DNA from: an uncultured bacterium
Lineage (GTDB): Bacteria; Margulisbacteria; WOR-1; CAVSGV01
Length of the DNA: 64,000 bases
NCBI GenBank assembly: GCA_963699255.1
Contig: OY969425.1
Span: forward strand, 646,070 to 710,069
Direction of reading: 5' to 3'
Below the pieces are notes generated by a model. That model was not told the origin of the DNA and searched no databases. It saw only the letters and a program-made list of their open reading frames with translations. A program made the position numbers and the translations under genes. Of this stretch, positions 3,377-32,020 are shown in pieces; positions within the stretch are counted from its first letter, which is position 1, and each line of letters opens with the position of its first letter.

Positions 3377-4675
3377 TCATCTCTTATTTCGTCGGATCTT
3401 TTGTAGTCCTTTTTTGACCTTGCCGACTTGATCTCCGATGCCAGATTCTTGGATCTCTTCCGGCAGTTCTTTTAGCTGGACATTTAGCCCAAGTACATCG
3501 ATAACCATCTCTTCGAAAAGTCCGGTAGCCTGGGCCCAGATATCAGGAGAAGCATTATCCCGGCCGTTCAGCTCGAATATAATGTCGCAGAGCTTGAAAA
3601 CTGAAGCCAGAGCTTCAGCTGTATTGAAATCATTGTCCATTGATCTGATGAAATCCGCTTTGACCGCTTTAAGTTCTTTATCGCTGACGTCTTCTTTTCC
3701 GCATGAAGCATGCTCGCGTACTATGAAGAGGGCGCTGATCAGTCTGTCAAGCCCGCCCTTCGCGTTCTCAAGGTCGGCATCAGAGAAATTGATCGGGCTT
3801 CTGTAGTGGGTCGACAAAAGATAGAACCTGATCAACATGGGATTGAATTTCGCGAAAATATCCCGAAGAGTGAAGAAATTGCCGAGCGACTTTGACATCT
3901 TCTCGGAATTTACGTTGACGAACCCGTTGTGTATCCAGTATCTGGCGAAAGGCTTGCCTGTGTAGCACTCCGCCTGGGCTATCTCGTTCTCGTGGTGCGG
4001 GAATACCAGGTCCAATCCTCCGCCATGAATATCAAGAGTATCAACGCCAGCTTCTTTAAGTGACATCACTGAACATTCGATATGCCAGCCTGGCCTTCCT
4101 TTTCCCCACGGCGAATCCCAGCTCGGCTCCCCCTCTTTCGCGGATTTCCATAGAGCAAAATCAAGAGGAGCTTTCTTTCTCTCATCCACAGCGACCCGCG
4201 CGCCCTCTTTCAGGTCATCAAGTTTTCTCTTCGAGAGCTTTCCGTAATCTTTGAACTTGGCCACTTCAAAGTAAACATCACCTTCAATAATATACGCGTA
4301 TCCTTTCTTCACCAGACCTTCGATAACCCTGATCATTTCCTTGATATGCTCTGTCGCTTTGGGGTAAAAGTCCGCTTTTTTGACGTTCAGCTTATCCATC
4401 ACCTCAAAGTAAGAAGCTATATATTTCTCCGTGATCTTCCTGCACAGTTCGCTCACGGCTAACGGCTTACCGCTGACGGCATCTATCCCGTCAGCCGATT
4501 GCCGTAAGCTGTTTGCTTTGTTGATTATCTTGTCATCGATATCGGTGATGTTCTGTATATATTTGACCTTATAGCCCGAATATTTAAGGTACCGGCGGAT
4601 AACATCAAACACCACATAAGCCCTTCCATGTCCAAGGTGCGTCTCGTCATAAGGGGTGATGCCGCAGACATACAT
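3377..4675 (-). CDS. cysS: cysteinyl-tRNA synthetase (the 5' end continues in another frame up to 4749; see finding)
   Basis: 432 aa; HIGH (HLGHGRAY) and KMSKS motifs. The true N-terminus [22 protein letters not shown] is encoded upstream in frame, and the ATG at 4749 overlaps the cysE stop (TAATG). Confidence 0.9.
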   Translation of the reverse strand: MYVCGITPYDETHLGHGRAYVVFDVIRRYLKYSGYKVKYIQNITDIDDKIINKANSLRQSADGIDAVSGKPLAVSELCRKITEKYIASYFEVMDKLNVKKADFYPKATEHIKEMIRVIEGLVKKGYAYIIEGDVYFEVAKFKDYGKLSKRKLDDLKEGARVAVDERKKAPLDFALWKSAKEGEPSWDSPWGKGRPGWHIECSVMSLKEAGVDTLDIHGGGLDLVFPHHENEIAQAECYTGKPFARYWIHNGFVNVNSEKMSKSLGNFFTLRDIFAKFNPMLIRFYLLSTHYRSPINFSDADLENAKGGLDRLISALFIVREHASCGKEDVSDKELKAVKADFIRSMDNDFNTAEALASVFKLCDIIFELNGRDNASPDIWAQATGLFEEMVIDVLGLNVQLKELPEEIQESGIGDQVGKVKKGLQKIRRNKR

Positions 4676-4748: not shown

Positions 4749-5357
4749 TTATTTCTTCAGCATCGATTCGAGTCTTGCAATGCGCTGGTTCATATCATCC
4801 AAAGCTTTTCCGACCGGGTCAGGAAGCTCTCCGTGCGCCAGAGGCTCTATCTTCCTGCCCTCGAGCACTACGATCCTCGCCGGATTGCCGACAACGGTCG
4901 ATTTCGCGGGGACCGATTTCGTGACAACAGCTCCGGCCCCTATTCTAGCATTGTCCCCTATATGTATATTGCCAAGTATTATGGATTCAGCGCCAATAAC
5001 AACTCCGTTGCCGATAGTAGGATGACGTTTGCCTTTTTCCGCGCCGGTGCCACCCAGTGTGACACCCTGATAGATCGTCACATCGTCGCCGACAACAGCC
5101 GTTTCACCTATAACTACTCCAACACCATGATCGATAAAGCACCTTTTGCCGATCTTCGCGCCGGGATGGATCTCGATCAAAGTAGAAAGCCTGCTGACCT
5201 GGGAAATAAAACGGGGAATTACGGGTATCTTAAGGTTGTAAAGAAAATGAGCAACGTTGTGAAACCATAATGCCCATAATCCCTGGTACATCAATACTTC
5301 AAAAATATTGCCGGCTGCCGGGTCCCTTTCAAATACCGCTCTTATTCCATCGAACAT
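4749..5357 (-). CDS. cysE: serine O-acetyltransferase
   Basis: 202 aa; hexapeptide-repeat left-handed beta helix plus a SAT N-terminal domain. Confidence 0.9.
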
Positions 5358-28326: not shown

Positions 28327-28373
28327 TTGGTTCACCCTTTCCTTCTTCACTATTCTACTATAAAGGAACGGAC

Positions 28374-28525
28374 ATGGCAATAAAGGCGATTTAGGGCAAA
28401 ATAAGGCAACAGAAGACACAAGGCTTATGGCTCAGGGTAAAAGCAACTATTCTTTTGCCCTTAGCCATGTATCTTACGCCCTATCCCCTCCATCTCTTCA
28501 TTTGCCTTCAATCGCCTTCAATATC
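28374..28525. repeat. long imperfect palindrome (two ~70-nt inverted arms of degenerate 10-nt ARGGCGATWR units), 'empty' copy
   Basis: The arm ATGGCAATAAAGGCGATTTAGGGCAAAATAAGGC...ATGGCTCAGGGTAAAAG mirrors CTTTTGCCCTTAGCCAT...GCCTTCAATCGCCTTCAATATC around a centre at ~28448. Confidence 0.6.
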
Positions 28526-28629
28526 TTTTTATTTGTCTGCTTTCAAACTTTCAATCAGCTTGAACTATCCCCCTCCGGGCGTATAATTCCTTTTGCTTTG
28601 ATCCTTCCCCATTAAAAGGAGTGTGCGAC

Positions 28630-29691
28630 ATGAAAAACAGGCAGTTTATTCCGGTCATAGTAGCTCTCCTAATCCTCTGTTCAATGGCTTTCCTTTACGG
28701 CTGCGGATCTAATACTTCAAGCAACGGAGGTTCGGTCGGCAGCCCGTGGATATATGTCGGCGCATCAAATGACAACGCCATCTCAATAATCGACGGTTCG
28801 ACCAATACTCTCGCGGGAACGATAGAACTTTCGCCAAGAAAGCCGTATCATATTGCCGCTTCACCGGACGGGAAGCATCTTTATGTTTCCACGGACAGCC
28901 CAGAGGTCGTCGTGATAGATACGGCCACTAATAAGATATCCGGCCTTATCACCACTGACGCCGATACGCAGTCTTACGGCATGGCGGTTTCCGTGAACGC
29001 CGCGCTCCTTTATTTTTCGAGATTTAACGATAACAAGCTTGTAAAATCATATCTGAACAGCAATCCTGTAACCTCTGAAACCGTGGTCACCGCCGCTACG
29101 CCGTACGGGATGAGCCTGGCCCATAATGACGGAATAAGTATCGTGTGCGAACCATCGAACCTTGAATGTTTCGACAATTCTCTGTTTATGTCTGACGCCA
29201 GCGTAAGTAACTTGGGCTCCAATCTGTATACTGTGGCCGTGAATAACGGATTGGCATTTGTCCCGCGATACGCGACGGGTGACGTTGCGATAGTTGATGT
29301 GGCGGACATCGTTAATCCAACCGCCGAGGTAACTGTCAGCCTGATAACGCCAGAAAGCGCGGCTACTTCATTTTTTGGGATAGTCTCCATTCCTGGAAAG
29401 AACAAGCTTTATGTAAGCCAGTACAAGCCTGCCGGCACATTAAATATAATTGACGCATCTTCTACTCCGACATTTGAATCCAAGGTGATCACAGGGGGGG
29501 CGTTCACCATGTCAAATCCGACCTATATGACCGCGACCGCTGACGGCAAATATGTATATGTTTATGATACTTCCACGATACACCACTCTCAGATCTGTGT
29601 TGTTGATGCCGCCGCGGATCAGGTCGTGCAAACGATACCTGTAAATGTGGGCGATGATTTTGACAACAATCCGGTAATTATCTATAAGTAA
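28630..29691 (+). CDS. lipoprotein with YVTN-type beta-propeller repeats
   Basis: Signal peptide with a lipobox (LYGC). Repeated ...LYVS/YVYV... beta-propeller blades. ATG at 28630 with GGAG 8 nt upstream. Confidence 0.65.
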   Translation: MKNRQFIPVIVALLILCSMAFLYGCGSNTSSNGGSVGSPWIYVGASNDNAISIIDGSTNTLAGTIELSPRKPYHIAASPDGKHLYVSTDSPEVVVIDTATNKISGLITTDADTQSYGMAVSVNAALLYFSRFNDNKLVKSYLNSNPVTSETVVTAATPYGMSLAHNDGISIVCEPSNLECFDNSLFMSDASVSNLGSNLYTVAVNNGLAFVPRYATGDVAIVDVADIVNPTAEVTVSLITPESAATSFFGIVSIPGKNKLYVSQYKPAGTLNIIDASSTPTFESKVITGGAFTMSNPTYMTATADGKYVYVYDTSTIHHSQICVVDAAADQVVQTIPVNVGDDFDNNPVIIYK

Positions 29692-29710
29692 CTGAAGCGT
29701 TCGGTAAAAG

Positions 29711-29747
29711 CCCGGTTTTATTCTTTCCGAGTAAAGCCGGGTTTTTT
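29711..29747 (+). terminator. rho-independent terminator after the YVTN lipoprotein gene
   Basis: CCCGGTTTTA-loop-TAAAGCCGGG followed by TTTTTTG. Confidence 0.45.
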
Positions 29748-29761
29748 GTTGGTTTTCCGAT

Positions 29762-30262
29762 CTAGATCGGAAGCGATATTTTGGACACGCCTATTTTTGA
29801 GGCGTCATCGATCCTGTTAAGCACTTCATCCGCCTTGCCGGGATGGGCGTTCAAATAAACGGACAGCTGCAATATTCCGGTTTGATTGGAGATATCGATC
29901 GTCATGGACTTTTTTTCGGCGGACCTTTCAAGCGGCAGATGGATCCTGGAAGAGCCCTTGCTTGCCGCGGTCGCCATCAATTTCGCTATTTTGTCCCCGC
30001 TGTTGGGATGCGTGTTCATGAAGTCGCTTATTTTCAAGGCGTCCGAGCTGTTGAAAAAGTCCACCTGTTCGGAATTCGCGAGAGGCATATTGCTGCTGGC
30101 GGCTAACGGATTAATGGCCTGGATACCCGGTTCATCGGAGTCATTCCTCTTATCGTCAAAGCCCATATCAGCACATCCTTTCTTAACAGGGGATATTATA
30201 GGCCTTAATAAGACAGAAGGCAAAACATGAAGGCGGGACATGAAGGCGATCGAGGAAGACAA
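29762..30262 (-). CDS. hypothetical protein
   Basis: 166 aa ORF; no motif recognised. The start may be the internal ATG (MGFDD...). Confidence 0.35.
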   Translation of the reverse strand: MSSSIAFMSRLHVLPSVLLRPIISPVKKGCADMGFDDKRNDSDEPGIQAINPLAASSNMPLANSEQVDFFNSSDALKISDFMNTHPNSGDKIAKLMATAASKGSSRIHLPLERSAEKKSMTIDISNQTGILQLSVYLNAHPGKADEVLNRIDDASKIGVSKISLPI

Positions 30263-30418
30263 AAGGCATTGGAATTCGGGAAACTTGGGATACGGTTTAG
30301 AGATATAGGAAAACAGGAATGAGGAAAACAGGAGTTCTTTTCTTCCTCTTTCCCCTTTTTCCTCTTTCCCTAAACTCAGTCCCTATATTCCTTTATCCCC
30401 ATTTCTCTAATATACCCC

Positions 30419-30850
30419 CTACTTCAAGAATCCGATGTTCTTGACCGTTTTATCCGGTATTTCCATCAATTCGTTTATCGCGTCAAAAACCACCTTGAAC
30501 TTGCCGTCGTATTTCTTTTCCATTTCCTCGATCTTCCGCTTCAATTCCGCATGGCTGGAAAGTAATCGTCTTAACCTTGTGAATGTCCTCATGATCTGGA
30601 TATTGACCTGAACGGCTCTTTCGCTGTTGAGCACTGAAGACAGCATTGCCACTCCTTGTTCAGTAAAGGCATAAGGCGAGAAGCGCCTCTTGCTGTATTT
30701 TGCGGTCACAAATTGTGACCGCAAATATTCAGACTCTTGCTCTGTCAACTGGAACATAAAATCATCAGGAAATCTCCGAATGGCAATAAAGGCGATTGAG
30801 GGCGATAAAGGGCGATAGAAGGCACAGGGCTTATGGCTTAGGGCTGGCAC
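30419..30850 (-). pseudogene. ORF6N-domain (KilA-N-like) protein, 5'-truncated by insertion of the palindromic cassette
   Basis: [15 protein letters not shown]...[29 protein letters not shown] matches the C-terminal half of the ORF6N domain. Sequence upstream of RFPDDF is repeat-derived, and the N-terminal half of the domain is absent. Confidence 0.6.
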
Positions 30851-31289
30851 TTGCGTTTTAAGGAATAAATAAGGCGGTTGAATAAGTATAAAGTTTTGAT
30901 AGTTAGTCCTTCAAAATGATCAAAAACATCTTTTGATACGTACTTTTTCAAATATACATGCCGCGACCAATTTCCCAATTCCGCTAGAGATCTGCGGCTA
31001 AAGCCCAAAAATCTAATGTATTCCTTTATACTGCCCGAATAATATCCTTCTACAAAGTTTGCGCTGACTGATGTTACCGCCCGATCAATTTGGTCTCTTA
31101 AACTAAAACAATTCTTCGGCACCAGCGGCATTATTTCACGATAAAGATATGTTTCTATTTTTTCAATATTGCCCCATACGATCATTTTTTTGTGTCCCTG
31201 CATGCAATTGCCCCCTTCTTCCCGCCTTACGCCTTGAGCCTCAAGCCCTAACACTCCCCTATATCGCCTTCTTTTGCCCTAATTGCCAT
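30780..31289. mobile_element. intervening-sequence-like cassette: a palindrome-family arm (30780-30850), a four-helix-bundle gene, and an inverted arm (31205-31289)
   Basis: Both arms belong to the ARGGCGATWR-unit family seen at 28374-28525 and 31388-31548. They overlap the gene's stop codon and promoter region. Inferred from sequence structure only. Confidence 0.4.
30838..31203 (-). CDS. four-helix-bundle protein (23S rRNA intervening-sequence protein family, TIGR02436-like)
   Basis: [18 protein letters not shown]...[45 protein letters not shown] matches the family consensus (L.vWqka...RAavSIpsNIAEG...F..A.GSlaEl). Confidence 0.75.
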
Positions 31290-31387
31290 ACCTTAACCAG
31301 CAATTTTTATGCCAAGGGAAATAAACATAGAAAGATCGAATATGCAGCAGCTTTCGACAGATGGGTGTCGAGAAGGATGACATGAGA

Positions 31388-31548
31388 AAGGGCAATTAAG
31401 GCGATTGATGGCGATACAAGGTGGTGGAAGGCATATGGCTAAAGGCTCATGGCAAAAGGAAATTTGTTTCTTGCCTTTTGTCTTATATCGTAAGCCCTAT
31501 ATGCCCTCTTTTGCCTTCAATCGCCATAAATCGCCCTTTATTTCTGCG
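31388..31548. repeat. long imperfect palindrome of the same family, 'empty' copy
   Basis: AAGGGCAATTAAGGCGATTGATGGCGATACAAGG... mirrored by ...CCTTCAATCGCCATAAATCGCCCTTT around a centre at ~31465. Confidence 0.55.
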
Positions 31549-32020
31549 CATTTCTTAAATACAAGAAGACTAATATTACTATAAGTATTGGAAGCAATAA
31601 ATCGTTCAGGTATAGTATCGGCCCCGCGTTATAAACGGCGGTATTGCCGGATGTGATTATATCTCGGATATGGCCTGTCCCCGCCCCTATTCCGAAGATT
31701 CCGCCTATTATTGCGATTGCGAGCCAGTAAGTGCCGCGGAACCAGAAGCTAAGGAGCGCGGCGATGCCGATGGCTATGTTGGCGACGCCGACTTCGTACT
31801 GGAACGGGCTTCCGGGAGCCCAGCCGATGCCGCGGGCGATGGCGGGTCCATTGAAGATGTGCTCAAGTCCAGCCATTGTCTGGCCGATACCGACGGCAAT
31901 GATGAAGTAATCAAGAAGGATTATCTCGAGTATGTTTGATATATTGCGAGTCTTCCTCGTCAGCGCGATATGGATGAGAATAATAAGTATCGTGATTGTC
32001 AGCATTATTATTGGGAACAT
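31538..32020 (-). CDS. hypothetical polytopic membrane protein
   Basis: 160 aa with four or five hydrophobic helices. Confidence 0.5.
   Translation of the reverse strand: MFPIIMLTITILIILIHIALTRKTRNISNILEIILLDYFIIAVGIGQTMAGLEHIFNGPAIARGIGWAPGSPFQYEVGVANIAIGIAALLSFWFRGTYWLAIAIIGGIFGIGAGTGHIRDIITSGNTAVYNAGPILYLNDLLLPILIVILVFLYLRNAQK

Follow-up and report, generated by a model that had tools for sequence, protein, structure and literature searches.

Three long imperfect palindromes lie close together in the window, the 64,000-nt (64-kb) stretch of an uncultivated bacterium's chromosome analysed here. They raise the question of what kind of element they are, and whether their arms act as DNA, as RNA or as protein-binding sites. 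The initial annotation had described two 'empty' copies and a third split around a gene for a four-helix-bundle protein. Folding and profile searches confirmed all three where they had been placed, as two gene-less hairpins (hairpins 1 and 3) and one gene-bearing split copy, hereafter the cassette (Table 1).

Table 1. Features of the palindrome cluster, with positions in the window.
Feature	Positions	Strand	Remarks
Sigma-70-like predicted promoter, PPIase gene	28352-28380	-	-35 TTGCCA, -10 TAGAAT; 10/12 matches (promoter scan)
Gene-less hairpin 1	28374-28528	.	Arms 28374-28445 and 28455-28528, tight central loop
Solo purine-rich arm	30198-30270	+	GAAGGCAAAACAT-type units, period 13, no adjacent partner
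Hairpin of another unit type (AGGAAAAC / CCTTTTTCC)	30287-30383	.	Just downstream of the ORF6N remnant
Truncated ORF6N gene	30419-30757	-	N-terminus lacks ~33 codons; adjoins cassette 3' arm
Cassette 3' arm	30780-30846	-	Pyrimidine-rich in the gene's sense; outer end ...ATTGCCAT
Four-helix-bundle protein gene, 121 aa	30838-31203	-	Loop of the cassette hairpin
Cassette 5' arm	31222-31289	-	Purine-rich in the gene's sense; starts ATGGCAATTAGGGC
Sigma-54-type -24/-12 motif TGGCATAAAAATTGC	31300-31314	-	Ends 10 nt before cassette 5' arm
Gene-less hairpin 3	31386-31548	.	Fold z -5.3; arm HMM E 2e-17 and 3e-13

Hairpin 1, which separates the divergently oriented PPIase and lipoprotein genes, folded (28365-28535) at -49 kcal/mol as compared with -34.1 +/- 3.8 for 200 shuffled sequences (z -3.9), none of which folded equally well. 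Hairpin 3 (31378-31555) folded at -66.1 against -45.2 +/- 4.0, a value reached by 0/200 shuffles; it is bounded by the DUF6790 stop codon at one end, and ~75 nt separate its other end from the -24/-12 motif downstream. The cassette arms paired around the four-helix-bundle ORF in a fold of 30770-31300, but this 531-nt fold as a whole, dominated by the ORF, did not outperform shuffled sequences (z -1.2). A six-arm HMM run on the 64 kb recovered the six arms at E 1e-11 to 1e-17 (1e-15 and 1.5e-14 for hairpin 1), the sole extra match being a weak one at 30240-30299. The latter falls at the solo arm, which was absent from the initial annotation and was found by a purine/GGC window scan (Tandem Repeats Finder period 13, 2.5 copies). 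The copies in the window are all confined to 3.2 kb and are 72-83% identical to one another. The hairpin at 30287-30383 (Tandem Repeats Finder periods 8 and 9) paired in a fold of 30200-30415, but with a z of only -0.6, and its membership of the family is uncertain.

The arms are arrays of RRGGC units, starting ATGGCAAT; on either strand, it is the 5' arm that is purine-rich. The six window arms contain 38 GGC triplets, as compared with 5.9 +/- 2.1 in shuffles, and 20 GGC pairs at 10, 20 or 30 nt, as compared with 0.2 +/- 0.4. Successive GGCs are spaced by 10 nt (11 times), 9 nt (five times) or 7 nt (11 times), each arm having three to five outer units of 9-10 nt and two to four inner units of 7 nt (GGCTTAT/GGCTCAG). 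In the cassette 3' arm, for example, Tandem Repeats Finder detected 4.1 copies of GGCGATAAAG with period 10 (30782-30822) and 2.9 copies of AGGGCTT with period 7 (30826-30845); hairpin 1 has a period-10 array at 28496-28522. The arms had been described as runs of 5-7 decamers phased at one helical turn, which is correct for their outer part but not for the inner 7-nt units. Similarly, the inverted arms are ~70 nt long as proposed, but complementarity is slightly lower than the proposed 70-75%: arm-to-arm identity was 63-71% over the whole arm and 71-83% in the best local stretches. The same spacing was found over 68 loci, both arms showing maxima at 10 and 9 nt, followed by 7 nt. Unit types differ greatly (GGCCCGTGAA, GGCAATTGAG, GGCGGAGAG), yet the 9-10-nt spacing is kept. 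Every GGC anchor was invariant in eight of eight aligned sequences, while flanking positions were degenerate; the invariant GGC/GCC triplets are register-setting clamps, between which positions vary and often mismatch.

The four-helix-bundle protein matched PF05635 (E 3.2e-16) and TIGR02436 (E 1.5e-16) and has 185 homologues at E <= 1e-5, the nearest 93% identical. Its PDB relatives are 2GSC and 2RLD, with five chains listed for each. The cassette 5' arm is followed by a Shine-Dalgarno-like stretch (GAAGGGGG) and the ATG, and the 3' arm overlaps the final codons and stop of the gene. The other genes near the elements are those for the PPIase, a beta-propeller lipoprotein, ORF6N and DUF6790; no transposase, integrase, RAYT/Y1_Tnp or reverse transcriptase was detected among the seven ORFs scanned (27.7-33.1 kb). 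The ORF6N remnant matched Pfam ORF6N at profile positions 36-86 of 86 only, and PADLOC PDC-S05 over positions 57-168 of 177.

The motif TGGCATAAAAATTGC fits the sigma-54 consensus (TGGCAC-N5-TTGCW), with GG at -24, GC at -12 and canonical spacing, and there are only three motifs of this type in the whole window. TGGC-N7-TTGC was present upstream in 29/65 distinct cassette loci, the background frequency being 0.015 per 250 nt. The leader is mostly 72-103 nt long, and in 15/27 leaders the first GGC comes 13-17 nt after TTGC. No Sigma54 domain was found in ten large window ORFs. The gene-less copies lack this motif, and transcription across hairpin 1, which sits in a divergent promoter region, is not obvious. 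The outer end of hairpin 1 is itself the -35 hexamer of the predicted PPIase promoter, and a promoter scan gave TTGCCT-17-TATAAT on the minus strand at the outer end of the solo arm, for the downstream ORF. A terminator scan picked up none of the hairpins.

The proposed link between palindrome and gene is real and general. About 56 distinct homologous metagenomic genes are enclosed by a purine-rich 5' arm (65-96% purine) and a complementary 3' arm; 56 distinct loci scored at least 30 for upstream/downstream inverted arms, as compared with ~18 +/- 2 after shuffling, and at many of them the arm ends 0-10 nt from the start or stop codon. The median score of an element's own 5' and 3' arms was 39, against 21 for cross-element pairs, showing that arms co-vary within each element. 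In an alignment of eight hairpins, 85.8% of cells paired, as compared with 80.7% when shuffled and 28-49% in slid controls, and there were compensatory changes at 15 pairs as compared with 9.4 when shuffled (0/500 shuffles in both cases); the RNAalifold covariation term was slightly unfavourable (+1.95). Arm identity was 0.55 in register, 0.40 when shifted by one unit and 0.28 at baseline, so that unit periodicity accounts for part of the arm-to-arm similarity. Over the 56 loci, arm mismatches comprised 197 wobble pairs in the sense (G.U + U.G) and 198 of the antisense-equivalent type (A.C + C.A). Mismatches are thus strand-symmetric and carry no RNA-specific signal. Selection for a stem in the sense RNA alone should enrich G.U, and the 197:198 ratio therefore counts against RNA-specific selection. 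Gene-less hairpins were matched to the cassette arms of their own locus at rank 1 of 65 in 16/16 cases, at least six of which do not overlap a cassette flank. Gene-less hairpins are stem-only relatives of the gene-bearing cassettes.

ORF-bearing intervening sequences (IVSs) of 23S rRNA, which interrupt helix 25 or helix 45, are known from Leptospira, Coxiella burnetii, Xanthomonas and Brucella. Other bacteria carry ORF-less, stem-only versions, and these sporadically distributed elements are regarded as selfish. Our cassettes share with them a PF05635 ORF of ~120 aa that is looped out from a long stem of inverted repeats, short purine-rich tandem repeats just upstream of the ORF, stem-only forms and a sporadic distribution. 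In the Coxiella IVS, the S23p ORF lies in an inverted-repeat stem-loop that is cut by RNase III, and the ORF is immediately preceded by three purine-rich heptamer repeats (GACAGAT; PMC4990558). Unlike the IVS, the cassette lies outside rRNA, which Rfam at the gathering score detected neither in the window nor in 40 homologous cassette loci, and it has its own putative sigma-54-type promoter, whereas the IVS rides on the rRNA transcript. The arms of 9-10-nt and 7-nt RRGGC units and the clustering of gene-less copies beside the cassette also set it apart. The palindromes are thus very probably the arms of hairpin cassettes that enclose a PF05635/TIGR02436 'S23p' gene, as a free-standing counterpart of the IVS. 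The Rfam search suggested in the initial annotation gave no match at the gathering score, consistent with its view of an undescribed family, and under relaxed settings the 30287-30383 hairpin alone drew matches, all of them spurious and of miRNA type (E ~0.07 or weaker). The family does have a precedent, however, its architecture being that of the 23S rRNA IVS outside rRNA.

The initial annotation could not match the repeat to REP, BIME, CRISPR or known MITE consensus sequences; arm build, gene type and the target-site duplication test show that it is none of REP, BIME, CRISPR or a classical MITE. The cassette resembles REP/REPIN-RAYT systems in having one gene between inverted hairpin-forming repeats and, in the same genome, gene-less palindromes that best match the repeats flanking the local gene. 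It differs in that the gene encodes a four-helix bundle and not a Y1 (IS200/IS605-like) transposase, that REPs are 20-40-nt GC-rich sequences with GTAG or CGTC tags, and that copy number looks low, with three in 64 kb. REP/BIME or REPIN-RAYT elements were ruled out by the ~70-nt tandem-unit arms, the PF05635 gene and the lack of a neighbouring Y1_Tnp. Correia/NEMIS, ERIC and RUP elements, bacterial MITEs that give RNase III-cleaved hairpins, are likewise intergenic imperfect palindromes of 100-160 nt, which can be cotranscribed and whose ends can create promoters. They have defined TIRs and target-site duplications (for instance TA for Correia), many near-identical copies and no internal unit periodicity, and none is known to be paired with a four-helix-bundle gene. 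The window holds three copies and one solo arm, with 72-83% identity among copies. The target-site duplications that the initial annotation suggested looking for were not enriched where the arms end (over 36 loci, the longest direct repeat averaged 4.36, as compared with 4.53 for displaced controls) and were not found at the three window copies; on this ground a classical MITE was rejected. Eukaryotic foldback (FB) transposons also have long inverted arms of degenerate short tandem units, and only some of their copies carry a coding segment in the middle, but their arms are of kilobase scale and their mobility is documented, whereas the cassette has neither a transposase among neighbouring ORFs nor target-site duplications. 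Plasmid iterons, ParR/parC, omega heptads and MetJ met-boxes, arrays bound by small proteins, likewise have runs of 7-11-bp units at intervals of about one helical turn, which in some cases form inverted blocks on both sides of a promoter. Unlike these phased operator arrays, the cassette is accompanied by neither a rep or par gene nor an origin, and its arms are complementary in register and co-vary, with unit sequences that vary widely between lineages. Iterons in the strict sense (~17-22-bp direct repeats at an origin, bound by Rep) were rejected, the units here being 7-10 nt in inverted arrays, as was CRISPR (24-48-nt repeats with unique spacers), given contiguous 7-13-nt units in inverted blocks. 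A diversity-generating retroelement was rejected for lack of an RT domain in the seven ORFs scanned, and an integron cassette with attC because the palindrome encloses the gene instead of adjoining it, and no neighbouring ORF encodes an integrase.

Comparison with related genomes, also suggested in the initial annotation, bears on whether the element is mobile. At the orthologous site in one relative (L115; LigA 79% identical), the cassette and hairpin 3 are missing and the ORF6N orthologue is intact (167 aa), preceded by a motif orthologous to that at 31300-31314. L115 keeps the PPIase-proximal arm of hairpin 1 at the orthologous position, together with a TTGCCA-17-TAAAAT arrangement before the PPIase gene in which the kept arm supplies the -35 box. 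In two syntenic relatives, the cassette occupies different intergenic sites and orientations, with a solo 3' arm left at the other site, and in L001/L035 a 22-bp direct repeat lies on both sides of it. These differences are expected of a mobile or indel-prone palindrome acting at the DNA level (foldback-, MITE- or REPIN-like), whose arms would be terminal inverted arrays, either recognized as DNA or folded as ssDNA, the cassette being the 'autonomous' form and the gene-less hairpins non-autonomous derivatives. Complementarity would then come from quasi-palindrome template switching or from regeneration at each move, and not from RNA function. The clustering of the window copies, the match of gene-less hairpins to the local cassette and the symmetry of mismatches are consistent with this explanation. 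Nevertheless, we consider it rather unlikely: target-site duplications are not enriched, the divergence of the window copies indicates no recent burst, neighbouring ORFs include no transposase, integrase or RAYT, and one arm has stayed unmoved since the L115 split. In addition, the conserved promoter is not part of the palindrome but nonetheless accompanies it at unrelated sites.

That the arms are phased, 'iteron-like' arrays, with a protein bound to RRGGC units of dsDNA or wrapping the purine strand as RNA or ssDNA, is unlikely, though it accounts well for GGC anchors that are invariant between degenerate flanks, for a spacing kept across very different unit types, for arrays placed between promoter and start codon, and for hairpins that match local cassette arms, as cognate specificity would predict. 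The pentameric four-helix-bundle protein would be the obvious candidate binder, with autoregulation or cassette marking as the outcome; its PDB relatives have five chains each, and Avd of diversity-generating retroelements, from a related four-helix-bundle family (PF05635), is pentameric and binds nucleic acid. Against this, a leader has anywhere between 0 and 13 GGC units and the counts do not peak sharply at 5, inner units 7 nt apart do not make a helical turn, and binding arrays alone do not require in-register complementarity and compensatory changes. Generic intergenic structural repeats (REP-like terminators, insulators or mRNA stabilizers), lying beside the four-helix-bundle gene by chance, would explain why hairpin 3 starts at a stop codon, why another locus (L063) has hairpins both between convergent genes and in the promoter region of a divergent pair, and why arm ends supply -35 boxes. 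This is very improbable, however, since the remaining ~60 kb of the window has no copies, arms flank ~56 independent four-helix-bundle genes, gene-less copies match the local cassette and the terminator scan was negative. Chance similarity of purine-rich, low-complexity sequence can be dismissed. The arms are indeed repetitive and 65-96% purine, and a strict pattern scan of reference genomes gave mostly GGCAAAAA-type low-complexity matches, but the GGC counts and phasing, the hairpin z-scores and the HMM matches down to 2e-17 refute it, as does recurrence of the architecture in dozens of independent loci; the initial annotation's reading of a true repeat stands.

Both functional ideas of the initial annotation, protein-binding arrays and an RNA stem, are possible. 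Arm co-variation, and the start of the arm at the predicted transcript start, favour a stem, while the invariant GGC anchors and strand-symmetric mismatches keep a DNA- or protein-level reading alive as a possibility. The best reading overall, with about an even chance of being right, is an IVS-like free-standing hairpin cassette with gene-less derivatives, most likely working as a transcript stem; for the RNA-stem mechanism itself our confidence falls slightly short of even. Transcription from the sigma-54-type promoter would begin at one of the first bases of the 5' arm, and the transcript ends would pair in a long imperfect stem, closing at the start and stop codons and burying the Shine-Dalgarno region. 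A homopurine arm would be unable to fold on itself, and long-range 5'-3' pairing would therefore be favoured. The stem could be a substrate for the double-strand RNase, RNase III, as in rRNA IVSs, or an end-protecting panhandle that controls gene expression. Gene-less copies would be derivatives that retain the stem alone and persist in intergenic DNA, where, in two cases, neighbouring genes may have recruited the TTGCC(A/T) ends of arms as their -35 boxes.

We conclude that the cassette is a widespread, previously undescribed form of a known kind of element, here in the chromosome of an uncultivated bacterium. More speculatively, and quite improbably on present evidence, the four-helix-bundle pentamer may bind sequence-specifically to the phased RRGGC units in its own arms and in nearby gene-less hairpins, and would then form with them a self-contained, co-evolving 'binder plus sites' module. 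Such a module may be an analogue of RAYT-REPIN with an unrelated protein, and may be switched on via a sigma-54 promoter common to other small cassette genes (ORF6N, PDDEXK_3). To our knowledge, the function of the S23p protein has been unknown since the early 1990s; if true, pentamer binding would be the first function for this protein of the rRNA IVS.

Both palindromes that the initial annotation had called 'empty' were found as long imperfect hairpins, and none of 200 shuffles folded as well as either. The third copy, said to be split around the four-helix-bundle gene, also held, its two arms pairing over a distance of 375 nt. An HMM of the arms, run against the 64-kb window, returned only these copies and one weak match, the source of which is a solo arm. 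The six window arms contained 38 GGC triplets as compared with 5.9 ± 2.1 in shuffles, and 20 GGC pairs lay 10, 20 or 30 nt apart as compared with 0.2. Successive triplets were spaced by 10 nt (11 instances), 9 nt (five) or 7 nt (11); the arm therefore has two zones, with outer units of 9–10 nt (e.g. GGCGATTGA, GGCAAAATAA) and inner units of 7 nt (GGCTTAT, GGCTCAG). Tandem Repeats Finder gave matching periods. The degenerate decamer runs first described thus correspond to the outer zone but not to the inner one, and arm complementarity was 63–71% for the whole arm, a little under the ∼70–75% first given, and 71–83% for the best stretches. Inversion of the repeat means that either strand reads as a purine-rich 5′ arm followed by a pyrimidine-rich 3′ arm. 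Arms of different copies in the window are 72–83% identical, above the identity of the two arms within one copy; the copies therefore descend from a palindrome that was already imperfect.

Features of the window and of comparison loci. L numbers denote loci from metagenomes or other genomes; L007 and L115 are orthologous to the window locus.
Feature	Position	Strand	Remarks
Sigma-70-like promoter match, −35 hexamer TTGCCA (arm end)	28352-28380	minus	faces PPIase gene
Gene-less hairpin 1	28374-28528		long, imperfect; fold z −3.9 versus dinucleotide shuffles
Variable cassette site	30170-31550; L115 4793-6140; L007		between DUF6790 gene and 135-aa ORF
Sigma-70-like promoter match, −35 hexamer TTGCCT (arm end)	30195-30223	minus	faces 135-aa ORF
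Solo arm	30198-30270		13-nt units
Hairpin of like design	30287-30383		other unit types, AGGAAAAC / CCTTTTTCC
Truncated ORF6N	30419-30757	minus	first ∼33 codons absent
Split copy, paired arms	30780-30846; 31222-31289
Four-helix-bundle gene	30838-31203	minus	121 aa; PF05635 / TIGR02436
Sigma-54-type motif TGGCATAAAAATTGC	31300-31314	minus	TTGGCA-N6-ATTGCTG site; the 64 kb hold only three motifs of this type
Gene-less hairpin 3	31386-31548		long, imperfect; fold z −5.3 versus dinucleotide shuffles
Other TTGGCA-N6-ATTGCTG sites	L041 ∼3558; L115 ∼4955-4975; L034 ∼2215
Other TTGGCA-N6-ATTGCTG site	L001 ∼670-690	minus
Hairpin of like design	L041 ∼4090-4290		GAAGCCGGAAAT units; 3′ of an ORF6N gene
Hairpin between stop codon and 3′ arm	L004 10361-10560; L063 5341-5486; L074; L075; L076; L077; L106		complete, purine then pyrimidine
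GGCAAAAA or GGCAAATAA palindromes	L013 ∼785-900, L017, L033		Acidobacteria bacterium PMV_8.33
GGCAAAAA or GGCAAATAA palindrome	L028		Blastocatellia
GGCAAAAA or GGCAAATAA palindrome	L018 1465-1655		Muribaculaceae

The PF05635 four-helix-bundle (S23p) family was first recognized in the ORF carried by intervening sequences (IVSs) of 23S rRNA, the best-known habitat of this very large family. We know of no function assigned to it, nor of any explanation for the IVS habitat in three decades. The profile of the window protein matches PDB 2GSC and 2RLD, with five chains listed for each. In the window cassette, comprising the gene and its two flanking arms, the 5′ arm stops 18 nt upstream of the ATG, before a Shine–Dalgarno-like GAAGGGGG, while the 3′ arm overlaps the final codons of the gene. 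Among the matches listed there were at least 185 homologues at E ≤ 1e-5, the named organisms including Candidatus Margulisiibacteriota and a WOR-3 bacterium; the window LigA shares 57–66% identity with its Margulisiibacteriota and Saganbacteria counterparts. A tblastn search of plasmids with the protein gave no matches at E ≤ 1e-6, and PADLOC and PHROGs gave none to it.

We retrieved the DNA around the homologues and compared the 220-nt flanks on the two sides of each gene. An inverted repeat scoring ≥ 30 surrounded the gene in 56 distinct loci (shuffles scored ∼18 ± 2), with a 5′ arm purine content of 65–96%. Arm sequence was very divergent between lineages, with unit types including GGCCCGTGAA, GGCAATTGAG, GGCTTAAG and GGCGGAGAG; each type forms an RRGGC array, and in both arms GGC spacing peaked at 10 and 9 nt, then at 7 nt. 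rRNA was absent from the window and from 40 of 40 short cassette loci tested; the cassettes are free-standing and are not IVSs in the strict sense. A composition scan of the cassette-bearing loci and the window revealed 16 gene-less hairpins, most of them within ∼3 kb of a cassette. Each ranked 1/65 against the arms of its own-locus cassette, and at least six do not overlap a cassette flank. The gene-less hairpins belong to the cassettes. There is good support for identifying the palindromes as arms that belong to an IVS-like hairpin cassette, free-standing and enclosing a four-helix-bundle gene, and to its gene-less derivatives.

Some cassette loci carry an additional complete hairpin ahead of the 3′ arm. 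There, two purine arms could compete for a single pyrimidine arm, and the extra hairpin could represent either a nested insertion or an alternative pairing. Downstream of the 3′ arm, ATGCAAGTTTTCC, which is the promoter-proximal AAAATTGC region in inverted form, was present in nine of 70 loci (L038, L043, L047, L053, L058, L059, L070, L076 and L004) as compared with ∼1.5 expected, and also at site B of L001. Of the sigma-70-like promoter matches in the region, the two best are those whose −35 hexamers are formed by outer ends of window arms.

Among known systems, the ORF-bearing 23S rRNA IVS comes closest. In Coxiella, the S23p ORF lies within a stem-loop of inverted repeats, purine-rich heptamer repeats are found immediately upstream of it, and the IVS is excised by RNase III (PMC4990558). 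The cassettes resemble such IVSs in gene family, stem and tandem purine units, but they lie outside rRNA, have their own predicted promoter and adjoin gene-less copies. REPIN–RAYT pairs and eukaryotic foldback elements are alike in layout but carry a different protein. The elements do not qualify as REP, MITE, CRISPR, iterons, DGR or integron cassettes, in line with the initial annotation, which had recognized no REP, CRISPR or MITE sequence. No Rfam family matched, and a full-text literature search yielded no description of free-standing cassettes of this kind; to that extent the family is undescribed, as had been proposed, although its design is that of the ORF-bearing IVS. A scan of reference genomes with the pattern GGCAAWWARGGCRAWWDRDGGCRAWW gave 25 matches, mostly GGCAAAAA low complexity and not including the source genome, and no four-helix-bundle gene was found near any of them. 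Palindromes of GGCAAAAA or GGCAAATAA units occur in unrelated genomes (Acidobacteria, Blastocatellia, Muribaculaceae), and one Acidobacteria MAG holds three copies that are nearly identical; their 8-kb loci contained no four-helix-bundle gene of the window subfamily.

Presence and absence were compared at orthologous loci, as the initial annotation had suggested. L115 (LigA 79% identical) has the gene order of the window, from DUF6790 and ORF6N on to PPIase, acetyltransferase and PFK, and a sigma-54-type motif directly precedes an intact 167-aa ORF6N. The cassette and hairpin 3 are both absent from this site, and hairpin 1 is represented by its PPIase-proximal arm only, the outer 17 nt being identical to the window. 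The TTGCCA end of hairpin 1, the −35 box of a putative sigma-70-like PPIase promoter, is conserved in L115. In the window, as in L007 (protein 93% identical), the sigma-54-type motif and ORF6N are separated by the cassette. Two further relatives, L001 and L004, carry the cassette at different intergenic sites and in different orientations, and a solo 3′ arm occupies the alternate site. These differences indicate that the elements are gained and lost. In L001 and L035 the four-helix-bundle gene is flanked, at −300 and +69, by a 22-bp direct repeat (TAAAATACGCGTCTCATGATCT), which duplicates the acyltransferase gene start and encloses the cassette, its predicted promoter and ∼170 nt upstream; no other locus had a flanking repeat of this type. 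A clean insertion was rejected, as the L007/L115 comparison reveals an insertion accompanied by loss of the 5′ end of ORF6N. Repair of ORF6N by excision was also rejected, as removing the cassette at any boundary leaves ORF6N non-intact. The variable site holds two intact ORF6N genes in L115, the cassette and an ORF6N having its own 5′ arm in L007, and the cassette, truncated ORF6N, an unrelated hairpin and the solo arm in the window. What remains of the truncated ORF6N matches PDC-S05, a candidate defence family in PADLOC (E 1e-31), as well as an anti-repressor family in PHROGs.

The arms of an element co-evolve. Scored against its own 3′ arm, the 5′ arm gave a median of 39, as compared with 21 against the 3′ arms of other elements, and in distant relatives it is closer to its own 3′ arm than to the nearest relative's 5′ arm. 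When eight related hairpins were aligned, 85.8% of cells were paired as compared with 80.7% when partners were shuffled, and compensatory change was seen in 15 pairs as compared with 9.4 (0/500 shuffles in both cases); sliding the partner by 1–3 columns lowered pairing to 28–49%. GGC/GCC anchors were invariant, with variable positions between them. Unit periodicity accounts for part of the arm similarity, identity between arms being 0.55 in register, 0.40 at a one-unit shift and 0.28 at baseline.

A conserved sigma-54-type motif, TGGC-N7-TTGC, was present in the upstream sequence of 29 of 65 distinct cassettes, against a background of 0.015 per 250 nt. It ends 5–15 nt ahead of the 5′ arm, and in 15 of 27 leaders TTGC is 13–17 nt from the first GGC; the predicted transcript start would therefore coincide with the opening bases of the arm, with the transcript ends pairing. 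The motif does not change with the unit type of the arm, and it is therefore independent of the repeat and no fragment of it. The GGC units were rejected as repeated sigma-54 −24 boxes, their spacing being off by one and the motif constant despite changing units. TTGGCA-N6-ATTGCTG precedes three kinds of small gene, namely four-helix-bundle, ORF6N and one PDDEXK_3 (GxxExxY-type); the PDDEXK_3 leader has other short units (TCGCGAATT / TCGCTAATT) and a short complementary 3′ stretch. The common motif suggests that small multi-copy cassette genes may be under a common regulon.

As the likeliest mechanism, though something short of probable, we propose that the transcript acts with its ends paired into a long imperfect stem, which would enclose the ORF together with its ribosome-binding site. 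An RNA-only model has its main weakness in the symmetry of arm mismatches in the 56 loci, 197 being sense-strand wobble pairs and 198 the antisense equivalents; thus, there is no sign of pairing selected specifically in the sense RNA. The conserved sigma-54-type motif argues the opposite way and points towards RNA. A mobile palindrome acting at the DNA level, maintained for example by quasi-palindrome template switching, would give the observed symmetry and fits the gain and loss of elements between orthologous loci. However, no transposase was found near the cassette, and target-site duplications, which the initial annotation had proposed seeking at copy boundaries, were neither enriched nor consistent at arm ends; we regard this explanation as unlikely. 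That the arms are phased protein-binding arrays seems to us slightly less likely again, and unit numbers had no sharp mode at five, the value that would match a pentamer. Neither the DNA-level palindrome nor the binding arrays need exclude the other readings. DNA curvature by phased A-tracts was discarded as an account of the whole family, since A-tracts are missing from many unit types, GGCCCGTGAA and GGCGGAGAG among them.

The gene-in-a-hairpin design of the 23S rRNA IVS exists outside rRNA, in uncultivated bacteria. With a conserved, putative sigma-54-type promoter, phased invariant GGC clamps and gene-less hairpins that match the cassette of their own locus, several hypotheses become testable, namely RNase III processing of an RNA panhandle, binding of the protein to its cognate arms and element turnover. 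For annotation, such intergenic palindromes may be confused with MITEs or sRNAs, and adjoining genes gain predicted promoters from their ends.
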